In this document: piece by piece, positions 12,002 through 28,866 of the stretch | Layout of the letters: each line of letters begins with the position of its first letter | Numbering within the stretch: position 1 is the stretch's first letter | Source: a virus | Taxonomy: Duplodnaviria; Caudoviricetes | Reading direction: 5' to 3' (one strand) | IMG/VR virus record: IMGVR_UViG_3300032246_001167 | Span: 1 to 57,742 of that record | DNA length: 57,742 bases | The notes under the pieces: model-generated | What the model saw: only the letters and a program-made list of their open reading frames with translations | Databases searched by the model: none | What the model was told of the DNA's origin: nothing | Program-made: the position numbers and the translations under genes

Positions 12002-13524
12002 GCATCGTTAGTCAGATCCTCGCCAATCCTGACCGTTACTCGGTGCAGGAGCTTCAACAGGGCATGCAAAGCGGCATGATCCCAGGCTATGTAGCCATCC
12101 CGCTTATTCAAGACAAAGTCAAAAAACAGCAGCGCATGCAGATGGCCATGCAAGGCCAAGGCGCTCCGGGCGAAGATGCCCCGACTGTTGCTGAAGATGT
12201 TCTTCAACAAGCCGATCAGTCGCAAGGTCTGCCAATGTTGGAATCCAACCTACCAGCTGAAGAGCAGTCCTATGCACCCGGCGGTATCGTCGCGTTTGAG
12301 CACGGCGGCCCGGTCAAGCATTTCAAAGTGGGCGGTCTTGATATCGACCCAGAGGATTACGCCAGTTTTGGCGCTAGGGAGTTGTTGGGCCAGGACTATG
12401 TGGATACCTCCAAGGGTATTGCTGCGCTTGAGCCATATGCCAATCTGGATGATGACACCAACCCATCTGGCGGTTTGGCTGACGAGGTTCGCCGCAACAT
12501 GGCGGTTATGCGTCAGTTTTATGGCGAAGCACCTAGCAGCAAAGAAGATATTGGCAAGTTGCGCACTCTCTTGGAGCAGCGTTCAGCACAAGCAGCAGAA
12601 GACGCCAAGACGGCAAAAGAGCGCAACATTATTGGACTGTTGGCTAACATTGCAGCCAATCCATCACAGTACTCAAGCGTAGCCATTGGTTCTGGTACAG
12701 CTAAGAGCCTGCCTGAGTTTGCCGCAGCTGAAGCAGCGCAACGCAAACAGCAGATGGACGACGCAATGGCTGGCCTGTCGCTTACCAAAGCAGAACGTGA
12801 AGAAGCCCTGGCAGGTCTGCCGGGCGCTTTGCAACTTACTGGCTACGGTGCGGACACGGAAGCCAAGAAGGCAGCAGCCAGAGCAAAGGTTGCAATAGCA
12901 CGCATCAACGCAAACAAAGAAAGGTACGGTGGTTTTGACATCCAAGCCATGACTGCTCGTGCAAACGCCATGGCCTTTGAACAGTTTGACAAGCCACTTG
13001 ATCAGCTTGGCCCCAAAGAAAAGGCGAAGGTTTTGGGCGCGGCGGCAACAGCGCAACAGCGAGATAAGCAGGCAGCGCAGTTTGATGCCAATGCAATTAG
13101 AAATGCACTTGGTCTGGGCAACCTAGGTCTCCAGCAATCCAACATTAACCACGAAGCATACTCAGCTTCACTTGCGTCGTTTGACAGAAACAAAGCCACG
13201 GACCGCAGAATCCAGCGTAATTACGACGCAATTGAAAAACAGTTTGGCACTGATGTTGCATTGGATTGGAAAAATAACCAAGTTGCGGCTATTTACAACG
13301 CTAACCCTGGCATTCCGCAAAGACTTCCAATGAAGCAGTTGCCAGAAGGCGTTGCCGCGTTGGTGCAAAAGAAGGGCGGAGAGGCGCCTGCACCAGCCAC
13401 TGCACCTAAGGCCGCCGGTTCAAGTACACTGTCTGCTGTAGACCAGAAGGCTTTGGAATGGGCAAACGCAAACCCCAAAGATCCAAGAGCCGATCAGATT
13501 AAAGCGAGACTAGGAAGCAGGTAA
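11998..13524 (+). CDS. internal virion / ejection protein
   Basis: Ala/Gln-rich helical protein between the pilot protein and the giant protein; YAPGGIV, FEHGGPV, FKVGGL motifs. Confidence 0.6.
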   Translation: MSIVSQILANPDRYSVQELQQGMQSGMIPGYVAIPLIQDKVKKQQRMQMAMQGQGAPGEDAPTVAEDVLQQADQSQGLPMLESNLPAEEQSYAPGGIVAFEHGGPVKHFKVGGLDIDPEDYASFGARELLGQDYVDTSKGIAALEPYANLDDDTNPSGGLADEVRRNMAVMRQFYGEAPSSKEDIGKLRTLLEQRSAQAAEDAKTAKERNIIGLLANIAANPSQYSSVAIGSGTAKSLPEFAAAEAAQRKQQMDDAMAGLSLTKAEREEALAGLPGALQLTGYGADTEAKKAAARAKVAIARINANKERYGGFDIQAMTARANAMAFEQFDKPLDQLGPKEKAKVLGAAATAQQRDKQAAQFDANAIRNALGLGNLGLQQSNINHEAYSASLASFDRNKATDRRIQRNYDAIEKQFGTDVALDWKNNQVAAIYNANPGIPQRLPMKQLPEGVAALVQKKGGEAPAPATAPKAAGSSTLSAVDQKALEWANANPKDPRADQIKARLGSR

Positions 13525-16500
13525 TGGCTTTTGACCCCGATGCTTATCTGCGTGAAAAATCAAAGCCTGAGTTTGACCCTGATGAGTATCTAAGCACAAC
13601 GCCATCAGAGCCCTTTGATCCTGACGCATACCTAGCCTCTACCAAAAAGGCAGAGCCCAGCTTTTTTGACCGTGCCAAAACAGCGGTAACCGACTTTTTC
13701 ACGCCGCATCCCAGCAAAGATGCTGGGCCCGCCATGCTCACGCCTGAAGAAGAGGTGATGGGCGCTGTTGCTGCAGCCCCTCCTCAAGCTGCCCCCAAGG
13801 TTGCACCGCCCCCGCCGGCGCCGATGGTTTATAAGAACCGCCGCGAAGCTTTGGATGACGCGGTCAACATGCTTGAAGAAGGCTTTGACCAGAAGAAAGT
13901 AATCGAGGCATTCCAAAAGCTCAATGTGCCTTGGGATGAGATTGTTAAGTACGGCAAGTCACGTGGCAGCGAGTACTTTGCACCAGGCATCCCGGCCACT
14001 GCAGAGCAAAAGCGTCGTGCTGCTGCAGCACCTCCGGCACCGGTATCGGAGCTGAAGCCCGGTCCTGAGCCGACTTACCTTGAAGGTGCAATGAACGCGT
14101 TTAAGCGCGGAAAAGCCAACATGTCCGATGTAGCAACCGGGATGTTGTTTGAAAGTCGCGTTCTCAACCCAGACGAAGCAGGGCAGATCCTGGCTCGCAA
14201 TGCAAATCAACGCGCTGCAGCTGCACCTTCTTATGAAGTGCAAAAGGGCATGGAGGCCATTGGCAGCGCCAAGACTTATGGCGAAGCAGTAGATGCCCTG
14301 TGGAACAACAAGAGCGCGACTCTAACAATGTTAGTCGACTCGCTGTTTCAAACGGCACCGACTCTTGGAGCGACGGCCGTTGCGGCGCCGCTGGGTGCAT
14401 TGTCACGTTTTGTCTCGACCTTTGGCGCGTCGGGCTCAATGGAATATGCGGGCGTTATCAATGACGTTTTGAATGAAAACGGCGTTGACCTGCGTAACCC
14501 GTCGGCCATTTCCAAGGCATTGAGTGACCCCAAAGTGTTGGAGCAGATGAAAGACAAGGGCATGAAGCGTGGCCTTGTCGTTGGTTTGTTTGATGGTCTT
14601 ACCGCTGGCATTGCTAGTTCTTTCATGAGGCCGGCCGAGGAAATCATTGCGGCCAACAAACTTACGGGCATGCAAGCCAAGAAAGTTGCGGCTGCCACGT
14701 GGGCAAAAGAACTGTCTTTGCAAATGGCTGGCGGTGCCGGTGGTGAATTTGCCGCACAACAGATCACTGGCGAAAACAAACCAGCCGACGTGATCATGGA
14801 AGCGCTAGCGGAAGGCCTAACCGCTCCAGCAGAAGTCATAAGCGCCATGCAAGCTGGCAAAGCCCCTCCGGCTCCAGCAGCAGAAGTCCCGCCGCAAGCA
14901 CCGCCACCTGAGCCCCCGCAAACGCCTCCTAGCCGGGTTGAGCCATTTGTTGGTGAAGAACCGCCAGCCCCAGCGCCAGCCCCCACGGAAGGTATCCCCG
15001 GCATTGTGTCGGCAGCGGAGACCATTCCAGAATCAACTGCTGACCTGACTGAGGAAGAGCAGAACCTTGTTACTGGCTACCTGGCCACTGGGTTTAGCGA
15101 AGAGGAAGCGTTTGACCGGATCATGAAGCGCCGGGAGCGTAAGGGTGGAACTCGTGCCCTGCCTCCAGTTGAAACGCCGATGCCGCCGGTTCAGGCAGAG
15201 CCCAAGCTTCCTGAGCTGCCTTCTAATGAAACAGCAGCTGTCGGCATGCCAACGGTTGAGGTGCCGCTCAAAGATTTGACCCTCTCTAAAGATGTGCCGC
15301 AGTTCAAGATGGGCGCCAATGAGAAGGGCGTGGTTGAGCCTCTTGGCGGCAAGTTTGAGCGCACTGGGGTCGCGCCCATTCAAGTGTGGCGTCGCAACGA
15401 TGGCAGCCTAGAGGTCATCTCTGGTCGGCACCGTTTGGATCTGGCTCGCCGCAGTGGTGAAACAACCATCCCGGCACAGATTCACGATGAGGCCCAAGGC
15501 TTCACGCCGCAGATGGCAGCCGTGTTGGATGCCGAGCTGAACATCCGTGATGGACAAGGAAAGGTCAAAGACTATGTCAATTACTTCAAAGCGTCCGGGA
15601 TCACCCCGCAAGATGCCGAGTCAAGAGGACTTCTGGCAAGAGCAACGGGCAAAAGGGCTTTCACCGTCGCATCTCAGGGCAGTGATGAACTCATTGCCGC
15701 AGTTCGTAACGACCAAGTCCCCGATGAAGCGGCGTACTTCATCGCGCTAAACGCACCTAACGACTCACGTCTTCAGGGCGTGGGTCTGCAGGCTGTCATG
15801 GATGGCAAGTCGGCCAACATTGCGGTCAACACGATGCAAGCCGTCAAGGCGTTGGGCATAGAGAACAACACCACGACGGACATGTTTGGCTTTGACGACA
15901 GCGCTTTGAAAGAAGCGCAAGCCATGGCACAAGTCGCGGCTCGCAAGCAAAGAGAAATCCAAACTCGCCTATCGGCTATCAGCGGTGCAGCCAAGAACCC
16001 GGCGATCGCCAAAGCAGAAGGCATCGACATCCGCGACCCTAACGCTGTTAATCAGCGCATCCAAGAGCTGCGCCAGATGAAGGCAGCTTGGGATAACTGG
16101 TCGACCAACCCGGACCTGATTGGCGAGATCCGCCAGGCTCGCGGTGTTGAAGCTCCCTCACTTACTTTGCGTGGTGAAACGGAAGAAGAGATCCGTGCGC
16201 GTGAAGAAGCAGCTGCAGCAGAGGAGCGTCGCCGCCGGGCTGAAGAAGATGCTGCTAAGAAGGCAGAGCAAGAGGCAGCAGAGCGTGCTCGTGCTGAGCA
16301 GACCGTTGGCCTATTTGAGCTGGGCCAGACCGCAGACCAACAATTGTCTGGCATGGGCGACCTGTTCGCCTCGCAAGAACCGGCTGTTGCGAAAGAGAAG
16401 CCAGCTGAGACAAAGGTCGAGCCTACTGGTGCAGCGCGATTGGTGATGGACAGGGCTCAACGCCTTGCTAATGCTGAAAATAACTTCCGCACATCAGTCA

Positions 16501-19500
16501 TGGAACAGTTTGGCCTGACGGCTGAACAGGCCGACGCGGCGCTACAAAAACTGATTAAGGAAAAGCTGGTTACGCTGAACCCAGATACCGGCCAGGCCGA
16601 CCTGAAGACCGGTGCAGCTTGGGACCGCGATGTCATGCTGCGCGCAGCTGGCGCTGAAGAAGAGCCAAAGGAAGAGCGCAAGCCCGGCGCTACTGATGAC
16701 GAAATCAAGAAGGTCGGTGAGGTCTTTGAAGGTGCTCAAGAGAGCCAGGTCGAAGACGACTTTGAAATTCACCACCTCTTTGATCCTCCCGCAAAGGAGG
16801 ACATTGTTCGCCTGAGCGAGAAGGAAGACTTCCTTACGCCCGAGCAAGCCAAGGCCAAGATTGCCGAGTGGCGCAAGAACGCCGAAGAGCAAGACAAGAA
16901 GGGTCGGGCTAAAGGGCAGATGAACCCCAACTCCGACAAGGTGGTTCTGTCGTTGTTTGACCTGACCGGTGCTTGGAGTGAGCCGTGGGTTGAGGCCGGT
17001 TATCAGGTCTACCGCTTTGACATTCAAGACAAGTGGACGATGAAGGACGAGACCACTGGCGAAGAGGTCAACCTTGGTGACATCAACCAGTTCAGCGTCA
17101 AGTATTTCCAAGACCTCTTTGGCGACTTTGAGGGTAACGACGTCTACGCCATCCTGGCTGCCTGTCCGTGTACAGACTTTGCTTCTAGTGGAGCGCGTCA
17201 CTTCAAGGCCAAGGACGCTAACGGCAAGACGATGGACTCCATCAACCTTGTCAAAAAGACACTGGCCGTTATTGATTACTGGAAGCCTTCCATCTGGGCT
17301 ATTGAAAACCCGGTAGGCCGGATTGAAAAGTTGGGCGGTCTTCCCCCATGGCGGATGTCGTTTGACCCGTACATGTTTGGCGACCCGTATACCAAGAAGA
17401 CTTTGCTGTGGGGCCGCTTCAACGCCGACCTGCCGACTGCTCCTGTTGAACCCACCGAGGGTTCCAAGATGCACCGTCAGTACGGCGGCAAGTCTTTGGC
17501 TACCAAGAACGCCCGCAGCGTTACACCGGAAGGTTTTGCCTATGCGTTCTTCCAAGCCAACAACGCCATCGACAACCCGGTGCTGGCAATCGCTGGCAAG
17601 TATGACCGCCTAGATCGTGACCTTATTCAACAGGCGTTGGATGCTGGCCTTACGGAATACGAAATCCAGCAGTTGGTTGATGACCCGTACTATTTTGATG
17701 GCGACGACGAGGCGGCAGAGAACGCCCTGCGTGCAGCTATTGCGGAGAAGAAATCGCAAAAGCCGGCTGTTGCGAAAGAAAAGCCCACAGAAGAAAAGGA
17801 CCTCTTTGGCGAGCCCACCGAAGAGGCTTTGAAAGCGCAAGCCAGAGAGCTGATGAATACGAAGGTTCGTATTTATGCGTCTGGCATGTCTGCTATCAGC
17901 GATTTGTCTAGGGCTGGCCGTGGCGCTGGCGGTCTTGATCTCAAGGGCGTTGGCGTGGATGTTGGCGAGCTGTCGGCTAACGCCATCAACATGCTTGCCC
18001 ACACGATTGTTAATTTTAACGGTGCCGCGTTTATCGACTCCGGCGCGTTCGGTGCGTTTAGGCGTGGCCTGAAGTCAGGGACCATTACGCCCATTAACTT
18101 TGACAACGTGCTCAAAAAGTACGACGCCATCATTGATGCCGTTGGCCAGACGGCAGAAGAGAATGGTGGGGATTGGTCTGATGTGCCCAACAAGCCGATG
18201 CTCGTCATGCCTGACGTTGTTGGCGACCAAACCGCCTCTCTGGCTGAGCTGAAGAAGCATCTGCGGTGGGTCAAGACTGAGCTCAAACTTAACCATCTGC
18301 AGCTGATCGTCCCGTTGCAACGCGGTGACCTGTCTCTAAGCGATGCCTACAAGGCAATCGTCGACATGCTGGGCACCGATAACTTTGTGGTTGGCATCCC
18401 ATCCAACGCAGCTGCCATCACGCCGCAGGAACTTGAGGCGTTCCTCCGTGAGTCCAAGCCCAAGGCTATTCACATCCTGGGTGCTGGTTCTGAAAAGAAT
18501 CTGCTGCCCCGACTAATCAGTGCCATCAACGCAGGCGTAGCGGACACCACCAAGATCACGGCTGATGCCTCGCCTATCCGTAGCGCTGTGTTGGCCGCAG
18601 TTGCCAACGGGGCAAAACGCGGTGATGCCATTGAACAGTTTGTGTTTGATGAGCGTGACCCGGCCCTTCTAAGGGATCTTGAACGAGCAAAAGCCGAGCC
18701 TGCCGCACCAGCAGCTCCGGTGGAAGCAGTTGCCGAAGAGCCTGTTGCGCCCGCCGAGAAACCAGCCAAGGCACCAAAGGTAGCCAAAGAAAAGCTGCCC
18801 TATACGCCTGAGCAACGCAAGGAAGCAGAGGGTCACGCCGAAGAAATTAAGGGTGATCTGTTCTGGCAGAAGGGCGACTACGCTCTGGTGCGCACCTATT
18901 CACTGACCGGCGACACCATTTACATACCCACAATGGGTTCTAGAAGGGCGATGGTTGTAGACGTCAGGTCGTTTACCAACAAAGCCCTGCCTGAAGACAT
19001 TAAGCAGGAGATGCTTGCGGCTAGAGAACAAGCCGAGCGCGAAGCTGAGATCCGTCACGAGTTTGCTCCGTTCATCAAGTTCAAGGATGGGATTGCTCTA
19101 TCTGAAGACATTCCAGACAACCTGGCTGGCGTCATCCGTGGGTGGAAGGATCTTCTCAAGCTGGATGCGCCGATCTATGTATCCACGATTGAGGATGCAA
19201 GACGCAACAAGAACAATTTCACTGGTCCGCATCGCCGCATCGGGTCTGGCACGATCAATGAAAACGATGCCGGCTCTATGCGCCGCATGAATGATGGCAG
19301 CTATTACATCCTGTTCACCAAGTCGACCAGCCCAACCGTCATGCTGGAAATTTTGGGCCACGAGCTTGGGCACTTGCATCAAGCGTTGGTGTTCGACAGA
19401 GCGCCCCGTGAAACTCAGCAAGCCATCAGAGATGCGCATAAAAATTGGTTGGCATCCCAAAAGGGCAAAACCGCCAAAGAGCTAGTTGCCTCTATGCGTG

Positions 19501-22500
19501 GCCGCGCAACAGCTCGCCGCGTGCGTTACGCAAGCGAAGACCTGAAGGCTGAAGAGGCCAGCTCATACTGGCATTCTTTCAAAGAGTGGTATGCCGACCA
19601 GGTATCGCGCTGGGCTGTATCGGCCGAGGCTCCTACCACCATTGTGGAGAAGTTCTTTAAGCGCCTTGGCAACCAGCTACGCCAGTTCTACCAGCAACTG
19701 AAGAACAAGAAGTACCTGCCTGATGAGACGTTTGCCAAGTACATCAACGAAGTCACGGCCCGCGCTCCAGAACTAACTCCGCCGAAGGATATAAGCGATT
19801 TAGCAGAGCAGTCGCGCAAGATGGTGGAGCCGGAACAAACAAATGAAGATGAAGACGACAAGCTGCTGAGCAAGTACAACCGGCCGAACACGCCGATGTT
19901 GGATGGCAAACCGCTGGGCACGTTCCTTCTGGGACAGTGGAAGAACGGCAAGCAGCTGTTCAAAGACTTCATCAACGACCCGGTAGAAGCGGCAAAGGAT
20001 GCGGGTGATTCAGCATTCGATGCGGTGATCTCAGCCCGGATGCAGACCGTTTGGTTTGGCGCCGGCCTAGAGTCGCGTGATTTCAATCGCTATGGCCGCC
20101 AGCTGCGGACCAGCGAAGGCTTGGCTATTGCCTCGGTTGCTTTGGATAACGCCATCCACAGCGCCAACATTGGCATCCAAGTCTTGTTCCAAGGTGGCTT
20201 GAAGTACGACTCCAAGTTTGGTCGCTTTGTTGCCGTCGAACGCAAGCTTGGTATGCGTGGCGTGTACGAAGCAGAAAAGCGCATGAAGGATCGTATCGGC
20301 GCCCAGAAGGCCACGAACCTTATCAATGGTTATCTGGAAGCCAAGCGTTCGATCAGCATCATGAACGAGCTCTACGATCGCCAGGCCAATTACGAAGATC
20401 TGAAGGCGCATTTAGAAGAGCTGGTCAATCAAGGCGCCAAAGAGGCAGACATCCAGGATGCCCGCGATGATTTGATAGACGCCCAGAATGATCTCAAGGC
20501 CATCCAGAAGGCCGCCTCTTCTGTGCTGATGTCAGAGCAAGAGATGCGCGACTTTGCTGCTTTGGATAAGAGCCATCCAGAGCTGCGCGAGATCATGAAG
20601 AACTTCAACGCCATCAACCAAAACCTGCTTAGGGTTTGGCGTGACGTTGGCCTGTTGTCTGAAAAGCGTTACAACACCCTGGCTGACATTCAGGACTACG
20701 TGCCGTGGCAGCGCCTTATGGAAGACGGCGAAGATCCGCATACGCCGCTCCAGTCGACTAATCGAAACCTGACCAACATCGGCCGGGAGAAGTTGTTCAA
20801 GCGCGGCGCACCAACGGACGTCTTGGACTTTAAGGCTCAGGTAGGTCAGAACACTTTTGAGCTTCCTGCCTCTACAGTCTTAAAGGTTACCGTTGACGGC
20901 AAGCGTGTGCCGGCAGATCTTCTGTCTGTGACTGAAGACGGCAAGTTGCGTATCGACCAGCCGATTGAAGAAGGCGCCTTGGTGGTGTTTAAGGTCACCC
21001 GACCGATCAACAACATCATTGAAAACATGACGCAGAACGTCATGCGCATGAGCATGAACGCCATCCGTCACTACGCAGCTGCGCGGATTGTTTATGAATA
21101 CGGCACGCGTGCGCCTGATGGCAAGTTGATGACCTTCCCCAAGGTGGACAAGGCAAAGAACCGCTTCAACTTCATCATTGATGGGCAAAAGGTTGTGGTG
21201 GAAATCAGCGATCCTTTGGTTGCTGGATCCATCTACGGCATGGAGAACCTTGACCTAGAGATGTGGAAGCCTTTGGCCATGGTCACTAACCTTGTTCGAC
21301 GGTCTATTACTTTGTCTGGGGCGTTCCAGCTTGAGCAGGTTTTGAAAGACGCGCCCACAGCAGCCATGGTTACCGGCGTTAAGCGTCCTGACTTGTTGAT
21401 TGGCGGCGTGCTCAAGGGCCTTATAACCTCTTTGGTCCAGCCTGCCGGCAAAGCGGCGGGTGTTGATATTGAACCCACAGTCAACATCCTTAGAGCTGCC
21501 GGTATTGGTGGATTCCATAGTCCATCCCGTACGTCAGAAGAAACAGTTAAGCGCCGCATTGGGGTGATGAACCGCAATGTTTATTCGGCATCGATTCAAA
21601 TGCTTGACCACATTGGCGACTCTGCCGATATGGCGCAGCGCGTGGCTGTGTACAAGCGCGTCCTTGCAGAAACCGGGGATGAGATGCAGGCGTTGCATCA
21701 GGCGGCCAATGTCATCAACTTCTTGCACCGGGGTTCTGCTGGTTACGCCCAGGTGTTGTTCAAGATCGTGCCGTTTATGAGCGCATACGCCAATGCAACG
21801 GACGTTCTGGCCAACGCTTTGATTGGCGGAAACCTCAAGGGCATGAGCCGCGCCAAGGCCATACGCCGATTGGCTATCGCAACTGCCATGCTGTCCAGCC
21901 TGACGTTAATGTATTGCATGCTTGTGGGCGGTGACCCGGATTATGAAGAGCTTGATGACCAGACGAAGATGCGCAACATCATCGTGCCGGGAACCAAGAT
22001 AAAAATCCCCATGAACACCTCGGCCGCGTACATCTGGAAGGCCGTGCCGGAGATGCTCTACAACACGGTCATCAACGAAGGCACCCAGAACGAAGTAGAC
22101 CGCACCCGCCTTAAGAAGGCTTTGTCTCAAGCGGCTAAAGATATGTTGCTTGGCCCCCCGCCCATTCCGGCTGGCGTTGGCAAAGTAGCAGAAGTGGTTT
22201 TGGACCACGACTTCTACACTGGGCGTGGCGTAATCCCCGAAAACCTCAAGCACGTTGAAGCTTTTGAACAATGGGATGCCTCTACATCTGAGCTAGCCAA
22301 GAAGCTGAGCGCTTATACCGAGGTTCCGGGCACTGATGGCAAGCGTGTCTTGAGCCCCATCGAGGCGGACCACCTGGTGCGTGGTTTGTTTGGTTCAGTT
22401 GGCTTCACCGCTCAGTGGATTTCCAACGCTATTGGTGAGCGCAATGGCGATCGTCCTGAACTGACTGGCCGTGAAACTCCGGTGATTGGCCGGTTTATCA

Positions 22501-22838
22501 GACCTGAAGTTGGCCGGGCTAACGAGGATCTGTTCTACGACCTCAAGCAGCGCGTCGACGAGAAGTATCAGACGTGGAAGACAATGACCGACCGTGGTGA
22601 TGACGATGCGGCCGATGCTTATGAAAACAAGCATGAGGGCTTGCTTGATATGTATCGCGAGGTCAACCAGATCAACGATGCGCTTGGTCAGATCAACGCA
22701 GAAATCCGCGAACTTGGCACAGCCAAGGGCCTAGACATGACTCCTGAGCAGCGTCGCAAGGAAATCACTGATCTCCAGCGCGAGAAGATGGAGCTGGTCG
22801 ACGACATCCGAGAGCTTAGGAAAGAGGCCGGACTTTAA
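13524..22838 (+). CDS. giant polyvalent internal virion protein (ParB-like, C5 DNA methyltransferase, TGT/DpdA-like, zincin, LPD38-like domains)
   Basis: 3104 aa; FDPDAYL N-terminal repeats; VISGRHRL (~15.4 kb); PCTDF and IENP (~17.2-17.3 kb); IDSGAF, PDVVGD, IHILG (~18.0-18.5 kb); HELGH (~19.36 kb); helical C-terminus; last gene of ejection module. Confidence 0.85.
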   Translation: MAFDPDAYLREKSKPEFDPDEYLSTTPSEPFDPDAYLASTKKAEPSFFDRAKTAVTDFFTPHPSKDAGPAMLTPEEEVMGAVAAAPPQAAPKVAPPPPAPMVYKNRREALDDAVNMLEEGFDQKKVIEAFQKLNVPWDEIVKYGKSRGSEYFAPGIPATAEQKRRAAAAPPAPVSELKPGPEPTYLEGAMNAFKRGKANMSDVATGMLFESRVLNPDEAGQILARNANQRAAAAPSYEVQKGMEAIGSAKTYGEAVDALWNNKSATLTMLVDSLFQTAPTLGATAVAAPLGALSRFVSTFGASGSMEYAGVINDVLNENGVDLRNPSAISKALSDPKVLEQMKDKGMKRGLVVGLFDGLTAGIASSFMRPAEEIIAANKLTGMQAKKVAAATWAKELSLQMAGGAGGEFAAQQITGENKPADVIMEALAEGLTAPAEVISAMQAGKAPPAPAAEVPPQAPPPEPPQTPPSRVEPFVGEEPPAPAPAPTEGIPGIVSAAETIPESTADLTEEEQNLVTGYLATGFSEEEAFDRIMKRRERKGGTRALPPVETPMPPVQAEPKLPELPSNETAAVGMPTVEVPLKDLTLSKDVPQFKMGANEKGVVEPLGGKFERTGVAPIQVWRRNDGSLEVISGRHRLDLARRSGETTIPAQIHDEAQGFTPQMAAVLDAELNIRDGQGKVKDYVNYFKASGITPQDAESRGLLARATGKRAFTVASQGSDELIAAVRNDQVPDEAAYFIALNAPNDSRLQGVGLQAVMDGKSANIAVNTMQAVKALGIENNTTTDMFGFDDSALKEAQAMAQVAARKQREIQTRLSAISGAAKNPAIAKAEGIDIRDPNAVNQRIQELRQMKAAWDNWSTNPDLIGEIRQARGVEAPSLTLRGETEEEIRAREEAAAAEERRRRAEEDAAKKAEQEAAERARAEQTVGLFELGQTADQQLSGMGDLFASQEPAVAKEKPAETKVEPTGAARLVMDRAQRLANAENNFRTSVMEQFGLTAEQADAALQKLIKEKLVTLNPDTGQADLKTGAAWDRDVMLRAAGAEEEPKEERKPGATDDEIKKVGEVFEGAQESQVEDDFEIHHLFDPPAKEDIVRLSEKEDFLTPEQAKAKIAEWRKNAEEQDKKGRAKGQMNPNSDKVVLSLFDLTGAWSEPWVEAGYQVYRFDIQDKWTMKDETTGEEVNLGDINQFSVKYFQDLFGDFEGNDVYAILAACPCTDFASSGARHFKAKDANGKTMDSINLVKKTLAVIDYWKPSIWAIENPVGRIEKLGGLPPWRMSFDPYMFGDPYTKKTLLWGRFNADLPTAPVEPTEGSKMHRQYGGKSLATKNARSVTPEGFAYAFFQANNAIDNPVLAIAGKYDRLDRDLIQQALDAGLTEYEIQQLVDDPYYFDGDDEAAENALRAAIAEKKSQKPAVAKEKPTEEKDLFGEPTEEALKAQARELMNTKVRIYASGMSAISDLSRAGRGAGGLDLKGVGVDVGELSANAINMLAHTIVNFNGAAFIDSGAFGAFRRGLKSGTITPINFDNVLKKYDAIIDAVGQTAEENGGDWSDVPNKPMLVMPDVVGDQTASLAELKKHLRWVKTELKLNHLQLIVPLQRGDLSLSDAYKAIVDMLGTDNFVVGIPSNAAAITPQELEAFLRESKPKAIHILGAGSEKNLLPRLISAINAGVADTTKITADASPIRSAVLAAVANGAKRGDAIEQFVFDERDPALLRDLERAKAEPAAPAAPVEAVAEEPVAPAEKPAKAPKVAKEKLPYTPEQRKEAEGHAEEIKGDLFWQKGDYALVRTYSLTGDTIYIPTMGSRRAMVVDVRSFTNKALPEDIKQEMLAAREQAEREAEIRHEFAPFIKFKDGIALSEDIPDNLAGVIRGWKDLLKLDAPIYVSTIEDARRNKNNFTGPHRRIGSGTINENDAGSMRRMNDGSYYILFTKSTSPTVMLEILGHELGHLHQALVFDRAPRETQQAIRDAHKNWLASQKGKTAKELVASMRGRATARRVRYASEDLKAEEASSYWHSFKEWYADQVSRWAVSAEAPTTIVEKFFKRLGNQLRQFYQQLKNKKYLPDETFAKYINEVTARAPELTPPKDISDLAEQSRKMVEPEQTNEDEDDKLLSKYNRPNTPMLDGKPLGTFLLGQWKNGKQLFKDFINDPVEAAKDAGDSAFDAVISARMQTVWFGAGLESRDFNRYGRQLRTSEGLAIASVALDNAIHSANIGIQVLFQGGLKYDSKFGRFVAVERKLGMRGVYEAEKRMKDRIGAQKATNLINGYLEAKRSISIMNELYDRQANYEDLKAHLEELVNQGAKEADIQDARDDLIDAQNDLKAIQKAASSVLMSEQEMRDFAALDKSHPELREIMKNFNAINQNLLRVWRDVGLLSEKRYNTLADIQDYVPWQRLMEDGEDPHTPLQSTNRNLTNIGREKLFKRGAPTDVLDFKAQVGQNTFELPASTVLKVTVDGKRVPADLLSVTEDGKLRIDQPIEEGALVVFKVTRPINNIIENMTQNVMRMSMNAIRHYAAARIVYEYGTRAPDGKLMTFPKVDKAKNRFNFIIDGQKVVVEISDPLVAGSIYGMENLDLEMWKPLAMVTNLVRRSITLSGAFQLEQVLKDAPTAAMVTGVKRPDLLIGGVLKGLITSLVQPAGKAAGVDIEPTVNILRAAGIGGFHSPSRTSEETVKRRIGVMNRNVYSASIQMLDHIGDSADMAQRVAVYKRVLAETGDEMQALHQAANVINFLHRGSAGYAQVLFKIVPFMSAYANATDVLANALIGGNLKGMSRAKAIRRLAIATAMLSSLTLMYCMLVGGDPDYEELDDQTKMRNIIVPGTKIKIPMNTSAAYIWKAVPEMLYNTVINEGTQNEVDRTRLKKALSQAAKDMLLGPPPIPAGVGKVAEVVLDHDFYTGRGVIPENLKHVEAFEQWDASTSELAKKLSAYTEVPGTDGKRVLSPIEADHLVRGLFGSVGFTAQWISNAIGERNGDRPELTGRETPVIGRFIRPEVGRANEDLFYDLKQRVDEKYQTWKTMTDRGDDDAADAYENKHEGLLDMYREVNQINDALGQINAEIRELGTAKGLDMTPEQRRKEITDLQREKMELVDDIRELRKEAGL

Positions 22839-22851
22839 CAATGTTAAAGTA
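22832..22851. promoter_or_regulatory. palindromic operator-like site ACTTTAACA-A-TGTTAAAGT
   Basis: Perfect inverted repeat between convergent gene ends; recurs at ~28200 and three times at 38394-38493. Confidence 0.6.
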
Positions 22852-22852
22852 C

Positions 22853-23197
22853 TCAGAGCGTGTGTATCACAATGGTACACACGCCGCCCTTCTTAACTTC
22901 TTGCCGGGTGATGTGTAGCTCATCTATCTGACTGTCGGACTCATAGCATCCGGCGTGCTCGCAGGCATCCAGCAGGGCCTTCAAAATGTTGTCAACATCC
23001 CTCTTCCGGCGATCGGGCGGAAAGAGAGTAATGTGCACGGCCAGCCTTCCTTCCAGCGCTATAACACCGTTGCACGACTCAATCACTGACGCACGAAATT
23101 GCTGTCCGCGCTTTGATATGAAACGACTTTTTCCTGATTGCCCCCAGTAGTGGTTGACGGATGGAGGCCAGGGCAAGAGCAGTTGTATATGCTGCAT
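22853..23197 (-). CDS. rusA: RusA-family Holliday junction resolvase
   Basis: LPWPPSVNHYW, PPDRRKRDVDNILKALLDA, DSQID. Confidence 0.9.
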   Translation of the reverse strand: MQHIQLLLPWPPSVNHYWGQSGKSRFISKRGQQFRASVIESCNGVIALEGRLAVHITLFPPDRRKRDVDNILKALLDACEHAGCYESDSQIDELHITRQEVKKGGVCTIVIHTL

Positions 23198-28149: not shown

Positions 28150-28168
28150 TGGCGATAAGTAAAGCTCA

Positions 28169-28195
28169 GCCCCCTCTTCGTGAGGGGGTCTTTTT
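28169..28195 (+). terminator. intrinsic terminator
   Basis: GCCCCCTC-TTCGT-GAGGGGGT stem-loop followed by CTTTTT at end of operon. Confidence 0.8.
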
Positions 28196-28197
28196 GA

Positions 28198-28220
28198 GTA
28201 CTTTAACAATGTTAAAGTAC
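28198..28220. promoter_or_regulatory. palindromic operator-like site GTACTTTAACA-A-TGTTAAAGTAC
   Basis: Perfect 11-bp inverted repeat with the same core as 22832; immediately precedes the hammerhead. Confidence 0.65.
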
Positions 28221-28225
28221 AGACA

Positions 28226-28271
28226 GTCCTTCTGATGAGCCGTGAGTCGGCGAAACCTACGGGTAAAGGAC
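28226..28271 (+). ncRNA. type I hammerhead ribozyme
   Basis: Stem I GTCCTT/AAGGAC; core CTGATGA; stem II GCCG-TGAGT-CGGC; GAAA; stem III CC-TACG-GG; GTA cleavage triplet (cut after 28265); intergenic. Confidence 0.9.
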
Positions 28272-28281
28272 AGCGTGACCT

Positions 28282-28374
28282 TCCGGTGTAGCGGGCTGCG
28301 TGGGGTTTTCCCGAGGACGAAAGGGTGAAGTAAGGGGTCGCGAACCCGAGCTGCAGCCTGATTAGTAAACCGGA
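28282..28374 (+). ncRNA. putative multi-stem structured RNA downstream of hammerhead
   Basis: Nested stems TCCGGT/ACCGGA and GGCTGC/GCAGCC enclosing hairpins GGG-GTTTT-CCC and GGGT-CGCGA-ACCC. Confidence 0.45.
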
Positions 28375-28377
28375 CTG

Positions 28378-28406
28378 TTGACAACGGATTTAGTTGGACA
28401 TACGAT
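28378..28406 (+). promoter_or_regulatory. sigma70 promoter
   Basis: TTGACA, 17-nt spacer, TACGAT. Confidence 0.75.
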
Positions 28407-28412
28407 GCACGT

Positions 28413-28554
28413 GTCTGGGGTGGCTCCCGGGCGACGATAGGAACCCCGATATTTTGGTAGGGGCTTTGTGTGACTCAAATCGCATCCTATCTGCGCCTAG
28501 AGTTGCCCAACGCCAAGGGCCTAAGCCTCTACCAAAGTGTCGGGGTTTTTCTTT
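28413..28554 (+). ncRNA. putative small RNA / attenuator leader
   Basis: Starts at the expected TSS; 5' hairpin GTCTGGG-GTGGCT-CCCGGGC; ~23-bp stem 28444-28466/28523-28545 with G-U pairs followed by TTTTTCTTT. Confidence 0.6.
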
Positions 28555-28866
28555 GGCCAGACCGCTCAGCTTGTGGGGTAACCGCAGGAGCTGGGGGATA
28601 AGCGAGACTGTGGGATAGTTCTGAGAACTCGCAAACGGCGGCGAAGAGAGCACCGTTGGAACGAAAAGGCTGTCGGGTGCTGTGGCTCCGTAGAGGGATA
28701 CAGTTGAAGGCGCACCTGGGATGGGCTAGGTGCGTCCACCATAGCGGGATGTTCGGGGTTAAGGTGTTGAAGTTAAGGTGTTAGGGGTAGACAGCGTTGG
28801 CCGGGTGGTAAAATGACCACACATGCAACAGATGAAACTGTTAGCATGCAACTGTTAGGAGGAGAT

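Follow-up and report, generated by a model that had tools for sequence, protein, structure and literature searches.

Which RNA does a hammerhead ribozyme serve when it lies between two gene blocks of a tailed phage? Hammerheads between phage genes have been known since 2011, and according to the accessible part of the report describing them they flank genes and may process long transcripts (PMC3088659). Hundreds of bacterial and phage hammerheads are now known; the available sections of a 2019 account describe their biological purpose as largely open and the transcript-processing role of the phage examples as still unproven (PMC6765202). We address this question for a hammerhead motif in a 57.7-kb IMG/VR virus contig that is estimated to be 91% complete; the whole analysed stretch of 57,742 nucleotides is called the window. 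The locus is of interest here because it ties the hammerhead to a specific conserved RNA product, and not to a protein-coding cistron.

The hammerhead motif and its setting

The motif sits in a non-coding gap between a recombination and a replication gene block, the location that the original prediction had given. The upstream genes encode an exonuclease, Erf, a DUF968-like protein and small ORFs, the downstream genes a ParB-like protein, helicase and primase, and all are on the + strand. The following elements were recognized in the gap, each given with its evidence or position.

28169..28195, + strand: intrinsic-terminator-like hairpin (8 bp, of which 6 G-C) with a T-run, ending the recombination gene block (terminator scan)
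28198..28220, no strand assigned: 23-nt palindrome with 10-bp A/T-rich arms and a 3-nt centre, 5 nt upstream of helix I
28226..28271, + strand: type I hammerhead ribozyme motif (core, three helices, fold, conservation, compensatory changes)
28272..28374, + strand: conserved structured RNA of about 105 nt (alignments, pair counts)
28378..28406, + strand: sigma-70-like promoter (TTGACA, 17 nt, TACGAT), directly 3' of the module formed by the two preceding elements

Read from the sequence, helix I (6 bp) is formed by GTCCTT at 28226-31 and AAGGAC at 28266-71, and its 5' strand is followed by the core heptamer CTGATGA (CUGAUGA) at 28232-38. Helix II (4 bp) consists of GCCG (28239-42) and CGGC (28248-51) around the loop TGAGT, with a G-C pair adjoining the core. 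GAAA occupies 28252-55, and its last A opens helix III, in which A28255-C-C and G-G-T28264 enclose the loop TACG (28258-61) and form 3 bp including A15.1-U16.1. With A28265 as the last nucleotide before the predicted cut, the triplet at the cleavage site is GUA; the scissile bond is predicted between A28265 and A28266. All bases of the catalytic core are present, namely C3, U4, G5, A6, N7, G8 and A9, G12, A13 and A14, the pair A15.1-U16.1, and an H (not G) at position 17. The accessible text of PMC3088659 accepts as hammerheads those with three helices and standard pairs at 10.1-11.1, 1.1-2.1 and 15.1-16.1; the core-adjacent pairs found here, G28239-C28251, T28231-A28266 and A28255-T28264, are all standard. 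Helix I is open, while TGAGT closes helix II and TACG closes helix III, as in the type I topology. The core bases, helices and coordinates of the original prediction all match on this direct reading.

The minimum-free-energy fold of the 46 nt is exactly the three-helix junction. This fold is retained in a 101-nt context (30 nt more upstream and 24 nt more downstream) and in a 149-nt context with the whole downstream RNA; the minimum-free-energy structure of a 411-nt stretch lacks helices I and II. Applied to both strands, a strict descriptor, defined as the full core with helices of at least 4, 3 and 3 bp, gave a single site in the real window and likewise a single one over 300 dinucleotide-preserving shuffles. 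A chance origin of the motif is unlikely. The shuffle rate is small for one window but not negligible over very many windows, and it is therefore the comparison with relatives that settles genuineness. The heptamer CTGANGA by itself occurs 59 times on both strands of the window, against a mean of 26.8 in dinucleotide-preserving shuffles, and only one of these copies belongs to a hammerhead; the excess may stem from overlapping stop and start codons.

A search with Rfam hammerhead models, proposed as a check of the original prediction, gave a divided result. On a 66-nt stretch, cmscan aligned RF00163 (Hammerhead_1, clan CL00010) end to end, model positions 1-45 of 45 falling on exactly 28226-28271, yet the score of 20.1 bits (E 0.0045) does not reach the gathering score of 34 bits. 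All core positions and the three helices are matched over this full-length alignment; deviations from the consensus of the model concern the sequence of helix I, position 17 (A where the model has C) and the loop of helix III. Wider scans returned nothing: there was no hammerhead at the gathering score in the Rfam scan of the whole window, none at E<=10 in a scan of 701 nt, and no match of RF00163 to the whole record. RF02276 and RF00008 gave weak, irrelevant or partial matches and were set aside. As a control, the hammerhead of a related phage (L038) reached only 20.3-20.8 bits, on other hammerhead models, and the L006 variant described below reached 16.2 bits in a partial type III alignment. 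A gathering-level Rfam scan of ten related loci found no hammerhead, whereas the strict descriptor finds five there. Because clean hammerheads in related phages also score about 20 bits, the low score is not diagnostic, and the Rfam cut-off is not informative for the hammerheads of these phages.

The motif had been called a canonical type I hammerhead. By core, helices, topology and the covariation described below, the sequence at 28226-28271 is assigned to type I; 'canonical' needs a caveat, given the Rfam score below the cut-off, the 3-bp helix III and the missing loop-loop contact. When the flanks were read by eye, loop II showed no complementary partner for a stem I/loop II tertiary contact, and in L006 loop II is altered while the flanks are identical, an observation that speaks against a conserved Watson-Crick pseudoknot. 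Helix I has a conserved CA/AG extension (28224-25 and 28272-73), in which an internal loop could arise. Since no stem I/loop II contact was found, the speed of the ribozyme in vivo at low Mg2+ is uncertain.

Some hammerheads with a short stem III cleave as dimers, in which stem III and its loop are self-complementary and two copies pair. This arrangement was rejected, as CCTACGGG (28256-63) differs from its reverse complement. The minus-strand ORF 28166-28384 was likewise rejected as a protein gene, because relatives differ by indels of 46, 8, 3 and 7 nt and because the hammerhead is identical between lineages whose neighbouring RNA differs by a third.

A conserved unit of hammerhead and downstream RNA

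Relatives were collected with several queries. The helicase led to 52 related viral loci, a hammerhead pattern scan to 4 viral stretches, and a pattern from the downstream sequence to 5 viral and 7 metagenome stretches; the latter pattern gave 0 matches in bacterial genomes. The 663-nt gap had no DNA match among cultured phages. The closest helicase match (55%) was to an uncultured Caudoviricetes record, and among bacterial genomes the helicase found one 3.2-kb MAG contig and one weak match only. After duplicates had been merged, the region was present in ten contigs besides the window, and six sequence variants can be distinguished, counting the window. The samples from which these contigs derive are freshwater samples.

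Window (= L058/L066)
L005 (= L060, L063, L067)
L065
L006 (= L062)
L007 (= L059, L056/L057, L068)
L064

A metagenome match, L069, had only the pattern in common with these and lacked the hammerhead, and was taken as chance. The same holds for six extra viral contigs found with a looser downstream-RNA pattern, four of which are the same stretch: they shared nothing beyond the pattern and were without hammerhead.

By the strict descriptor, the hammerhead is intact in all ten other contigs found via the downstream RNA or the flanks, and its core bases are invariant in all six variants. Loss of the core in relatives with conserved flanks, which had been named as a refutation of the ribozyme, was not encountered. 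The hammerhead is identical in four of the six variants, which leaves few independent events, and the differences that do occur are informative. Between the window and L007, the hammerhead shows 0/46 differences and the adjoining downstream RNA 34/103. The comparison with L006 gives the reverse picture, with 8/46 differences and a 46-nt insertion in the helix III loop of the hammerhead and 0/103 differences in the downstream RNA. All eight L006 changes keep the fold and none affects a core base: two compensatory pair changes (CG to GC and GC to CG) turn helix II into GGCC/GGCC, two positions of loop II are changed, and two changes in the helix III loop add pairs at the base of an extended helix III. 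In L064, one helix I pair has changed from G-C to G-U. This pattern of variation is the one to be expected if the hammerhead works. In L006 (4209-4300), the 46-nt insertion makes helix III a long, probably branched arm in a background that is otherwise as in the window, and this variant looks like a cassette-like replacement inside the ribozyme.

On this evidence the motif is very probably a genuine ribozyme. The contrary reading, that it is inactive, either a chance look-alike or a decayed relic conserved through close kinship or through another role of the DNA or RNA, can draw on the sub-threshold Rfam score, the short helix III, the lack of an identified tertiary contact and the small number of independent lineages, and at the shuffle rate some chance descriptor matches are expected over the roughly 250,000 windows scanned. 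We nevertheless consider inactivity highly improbable: the hammerhead and the adjoining RNA contrast at 0/46 against 34/103, L006 has its fold-preserving changes while the background is otherwise identical, a helix I pair has become G-U in L064, and clean hammerheads of related phages score equally low.

Together with the ~105 nt 3' of it, the hammerhead makes up a single conserved module, as each of the 11 contigs with either part carries both. In twelve of the helicase loci the DUF968-like gene upstream is retained (59-76% identity), and both parts of the module are absent from all of them. The extent of the unit is delimited by L064 and L007, in which the sequence between terminator and hammerhead is unrelated and near-identity begins a few bases 5' of helix I, with 1/46 differences in the hammerhead and 1/103 in the downstream RNA. 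Since the upstream sequence of L064 has been replaced while hammerhead and RNA are nearly unchanged, the moving unit is the ribozyme with the downstream RNA, and not the terminator with the ribozyme.

The downstream RNA has a conserved fold. Its first hairpin (28274-28293) has an internal loop. A long-range helix (28294-28300/28352-28358) follows, inside which there are hairpins near 28302-28312 and 28334-28347; the RNA also has a conserved purine-rich stretch (28314-28332). In a model of five helices with 19 pairs, 94.7% of cells over five variants are paired, compared with 22-42% when the partners are slid. Four pairs are changed on both sides, in the hairpins 28274-76/28291-93 and around 28334-36/28345-47, and one of these compensations distinguishes the window from L005, neither of which has a downstream ORF. 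As the sample is small and comprises three lineages, the proposed fold is provisional. A narrow Rfam scan assigned the RNA to no family; the only match, a partial one at 14.4 bits, linked the first hairpin to the COG2908 RNA motif, and neither a tRNA nor a tmRNA was predicted downstream of the hammerhead.

In L007 (2938-3087, + strand), and also in L056, L064 and L068, a 49-aa ORF with a good Shine-Dalgarno sequence lies directly 3' of the module. This putative membrane-protein ORF has a hydrophobic C-terminal segment and had no PHROG match. A convergent gene for a 384-aa DNA-repair-exonuclease-like protein follows it.

Proposed role of the predicted cut

Further strict descriptor matches in the related phages show where other hammerheads of this group are placed.

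L031 13342-13430, - strand: hammerhead match
L038 12727-12784, - strand: hammerhead match
L043 11950-12046, - strand: hammerhead match
L044 8255-8306, - strand: hammerhead match

None of these four reaches the Rfam gathering score. The matches in L031, L038/L039, L043 and L044/L048 are on the strand opposite the helicase, in another operon. The three that were inspected (L031, L038 and L044) lie between cistrons, with the stop codon of the upstream ORF inside the ribozyme and a Shine-Dalgarno sequence and ATG 18-23 nt 3' of it. We propose that the hammerheads of this phage group would cut polycistronic RNA just 5' of the next functional unit. Because the next unit at the present locus is the conserved RNA, a function in freeing the 5' end of that RNA is favoured.

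Our preferred reading, which we hold at slightly better than even confidence, is that the hammerhead would cleave + strand transcripts, whereby the downstream RNA would acquire a defined 5'-OH end and be separated from the upstream operon. Transcription of the + strand would come about by passage through the terminator at 28169-28195 or from a promoter that overlaps this terminator. The segment 28226-28271 would then fold locally in the transcript and cut itself between A28265 and A28266. The upstream piece would keep the terminator hairpin and the ribozyme body and end in a 2',3'-cyclic phosphate, while the downstream piece, the conserved structured RNA of about 105 nt, would begin with a 5'-OH at A28266 and is predicted to carry this end together with 28266-71. 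In this way the ribozyme would fix the 5' end of the downstream RNA regardless of the transcription start and detach it from the recombination-operon mRNA, with a possible effect on the stability or function of the RNA. The original prediction had proposed 5' maturation of the following RNA, and this fits the occurrence of hammerhead and RNA as one module in all 11 contigs. A point against the preferred reading is that the terminator is strong-looking and lies 30 nt upstream of the hammerhead.

The sources of transcription differ between lineages. A terminator-like hairpin with T-run is found 5' of the module in every variant, with a different sequence in L007 and L064. In the window lineage, a promoter and terminator scan combined with reading revealed no convincing promoter between terminator and ribozyme. 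In the L007 lineage, TTGAAA and TACAAT, 16 nt apart, were read as a promoter that overlaps the terminator and would start transcription a few bases 5' of helix I. L064 has neither this arrangement nor the palindrome. Terminator read-through is thus the only predicted transcription source common to all variants. The promoter at 28378-28406 has both hexamers identical in L005 and L006, with a different spacer in L005; it probably starts the transcript into the replication genes, and so would mark the 3' limit of the module in the window lineage.

It is also conceivable that the ribozyme serves the upstream mRNA, with the downstream RNA merely adjoining. It would then trim read-through, give the recombination mRNA a compact 3' end and uncouple early transcription from the replication operon with its separate promoter (28378-28406). 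The conserved position directly 3' of the terminator, the conserved promoter 3' of the module and the placement of the inspected hammerheads of related phages, all at operon-internal boundaries, agree with such a role, and the available text of PMC6765202 allows that processing may alter transcript stabilities. We judge it unlikely, as hammerhead and downstream RNA always occur together, both being absent from the 12 related loci, and as the sequence 5' of the hammerhead was replaced in L064 while hammerhead and RNA stayed nearly identical.

The contiguity of the 3' strand of helix I with the conserved RNA would also agree with a regulated ribozyme, in which the downstream RNA would sense a ligand, protein or temperature, control helix I formation or cleavage and make expression of what follows conditional. 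Regulated cleavage was raised as a possibility for phage hammerheads by Perreault et al., in the accessible part of their paper (PMC3088659), and in the window a second AGGAC-like stretch (28314-28318) could compete for the 5' strand of helix I. This competitor is not conserved, as it reads AGGTC in L005 and AGGGG in L007. Nor is the alternative pairing of AAGG with a downstream CCTT, which the original prediction had offered as a possible switch and which we abandon: CCTT is CCTG in the L007/L064 lineage, and its two C's belong to the covariation-supported hairpin 28274-28293. In addition, the downstream hairpins form next to the hammerhead in local folds and do not compete with it, and the narrow Rfam scan of the downstream RNA matched no known aptamer family. 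Regulation of this kind therefore appears highly improbable.

The preferred reading, release of the downstream RNA with a defined 5' end, has parallels in several known systems. With the prophage and phage hammerheads of PMC3088659, as far as the accessible part describes them, the present one shares the consensus core, the three helices, an intergenic position in a phage transcription unit and the proposed cutting of long transcripts. Their classic form, 18-23 nt before a Shine-Dalgarno sequence and ATG, is seen in the related phages L031, L038 and L044, whereas the hammerhead of the window follows an intrinsic terminator and is succeeded by the conserved ~105-nt RNA, and not directly by a ribosome-binding site. 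Compared with the hammerheads described there, it also has a GUA triplet, a 3-bp helix III and a UACG loop. The same text reports that the HHphage hammerhead of haloviruses HF1/HF2 lies 13 nt before the helicase start and that a 5' end has been mapped no more than 3 nt from its cleavage site, which suggests 5'-end formation in vivo (PMC3088659). Like the present motif, HHphage heads the early/replication (helicase) block of a tailed virus. It is described as a structural variant 13 nt from the helicase start codon, whereas here the helicase starts about 1.8 kb downstream, and the intervening stretch contains the promoter, a long hairpin, a Betaproteobacteria-1 RNA and two ORFs.

The VIPR vrRNA arrays, in the accessible part of their description, resemble the present locus in that a phage hammerhead is placed to release a non-coding RNA of about 100 nt; vrRNAs consist of 9-16 YNNGG repeats followed by a tail (bioRxiv 10.64898/2026.04.26.720920). 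A hammerhead-interspersed vrRNA was rejected, as neither strand of the window contains a GGY run of at least 5 units at a 5-nt period, the best run being 4 units and far from the hammerhead, and the hammerhead-RNA module differs from these arrays in being single-copy. Synthetic ribozyme insulators such as RiboJ use a hammerhead 5' of a functional RNA to strip off the variable sequence upstream, and the RNA is left with a 5'-OH. RiboJ is engineered, whereas the hammerhead described here is natural and conserved, and its insulating effect is putative.

The ribozyme itself adds little that is new. What is new, to a modest degree, is its constant association with a structured RNA not described before. 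We tentatively suggest that the hammerhead may be a dedicated 5'-processing device of an undescribed phage non-coding RNA family, with a three-helix fold of about 105 nt and a first hairpin resembling the COG2908 motif, kept both where the RNA leads the 49-aa membrane-protein ORF and where it stands free just 5' of the replication-operon promoter. If true, a DNA phage would possess a natural regulatory or decoy RNA that is matured by a ribozyme and acts at the recombination/replication expression switch. The locus offers natural variants for comparison, namely the compensated helix II swap, the helix III enlarged by 46 nt, and the module with and without a downstream ORF. Together with the defined RNA partner, they make the purpose of the cut testable on a defined substrate, as a 5'-OH end can be set against removal of the upstream sequence.

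Other elements of the gap

The palindrome at 28198-28220 lies outside the ribozyme, is absent from the L007 lineage and is predicted to form a hairpin; in L005, both of its arms carry symmetric changes. A second copy (21-23 nt) at 22832-22855 overlaps the stop codon of a 3104-aa ORF, where two convergent genes meet. The palindrome may form a hairpin at RNA 3' ends or be bound by a protein. The 3104-aa ORF is a single reading frame at 13524-22838 (+ strand) of the window.

Downstream of the module, the + strand of the window at 28378-28556 comprises the promoter, a small hairpin, a long, nearly perfect hairpin (~28440-28545) and then a T-run. This arrangement could represent a small RNA of about 140 nt or an attenuator ahead of the Betaproteobacteria-1 RNA. 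Weak Rfam matches to MIR8622 reflect only the long hairpin.

The Betaproteobacteria-1 RNA (RF02932) itself is present at full length at 28563-28678 (+ strand), in the leader of the replication block, with 92.6 bits against a cut-off of 49.4. A full-text literature search returned no relevant text on this motif, and the main text of PMC5737381 does not use the term, although its supplements may describe the motif. The sequence comparisons place this orphan motif in leaders of phage replication modules and hint at a betaproteobacterial host. The motif also occurs 5' of the ParB-like gene in L038 (4381-4501) and L006 (4592-4707), and BLAST similarity to its 3' half and about 60 nt beyond was found in L032, L034, L035, L039-L042 and L046.
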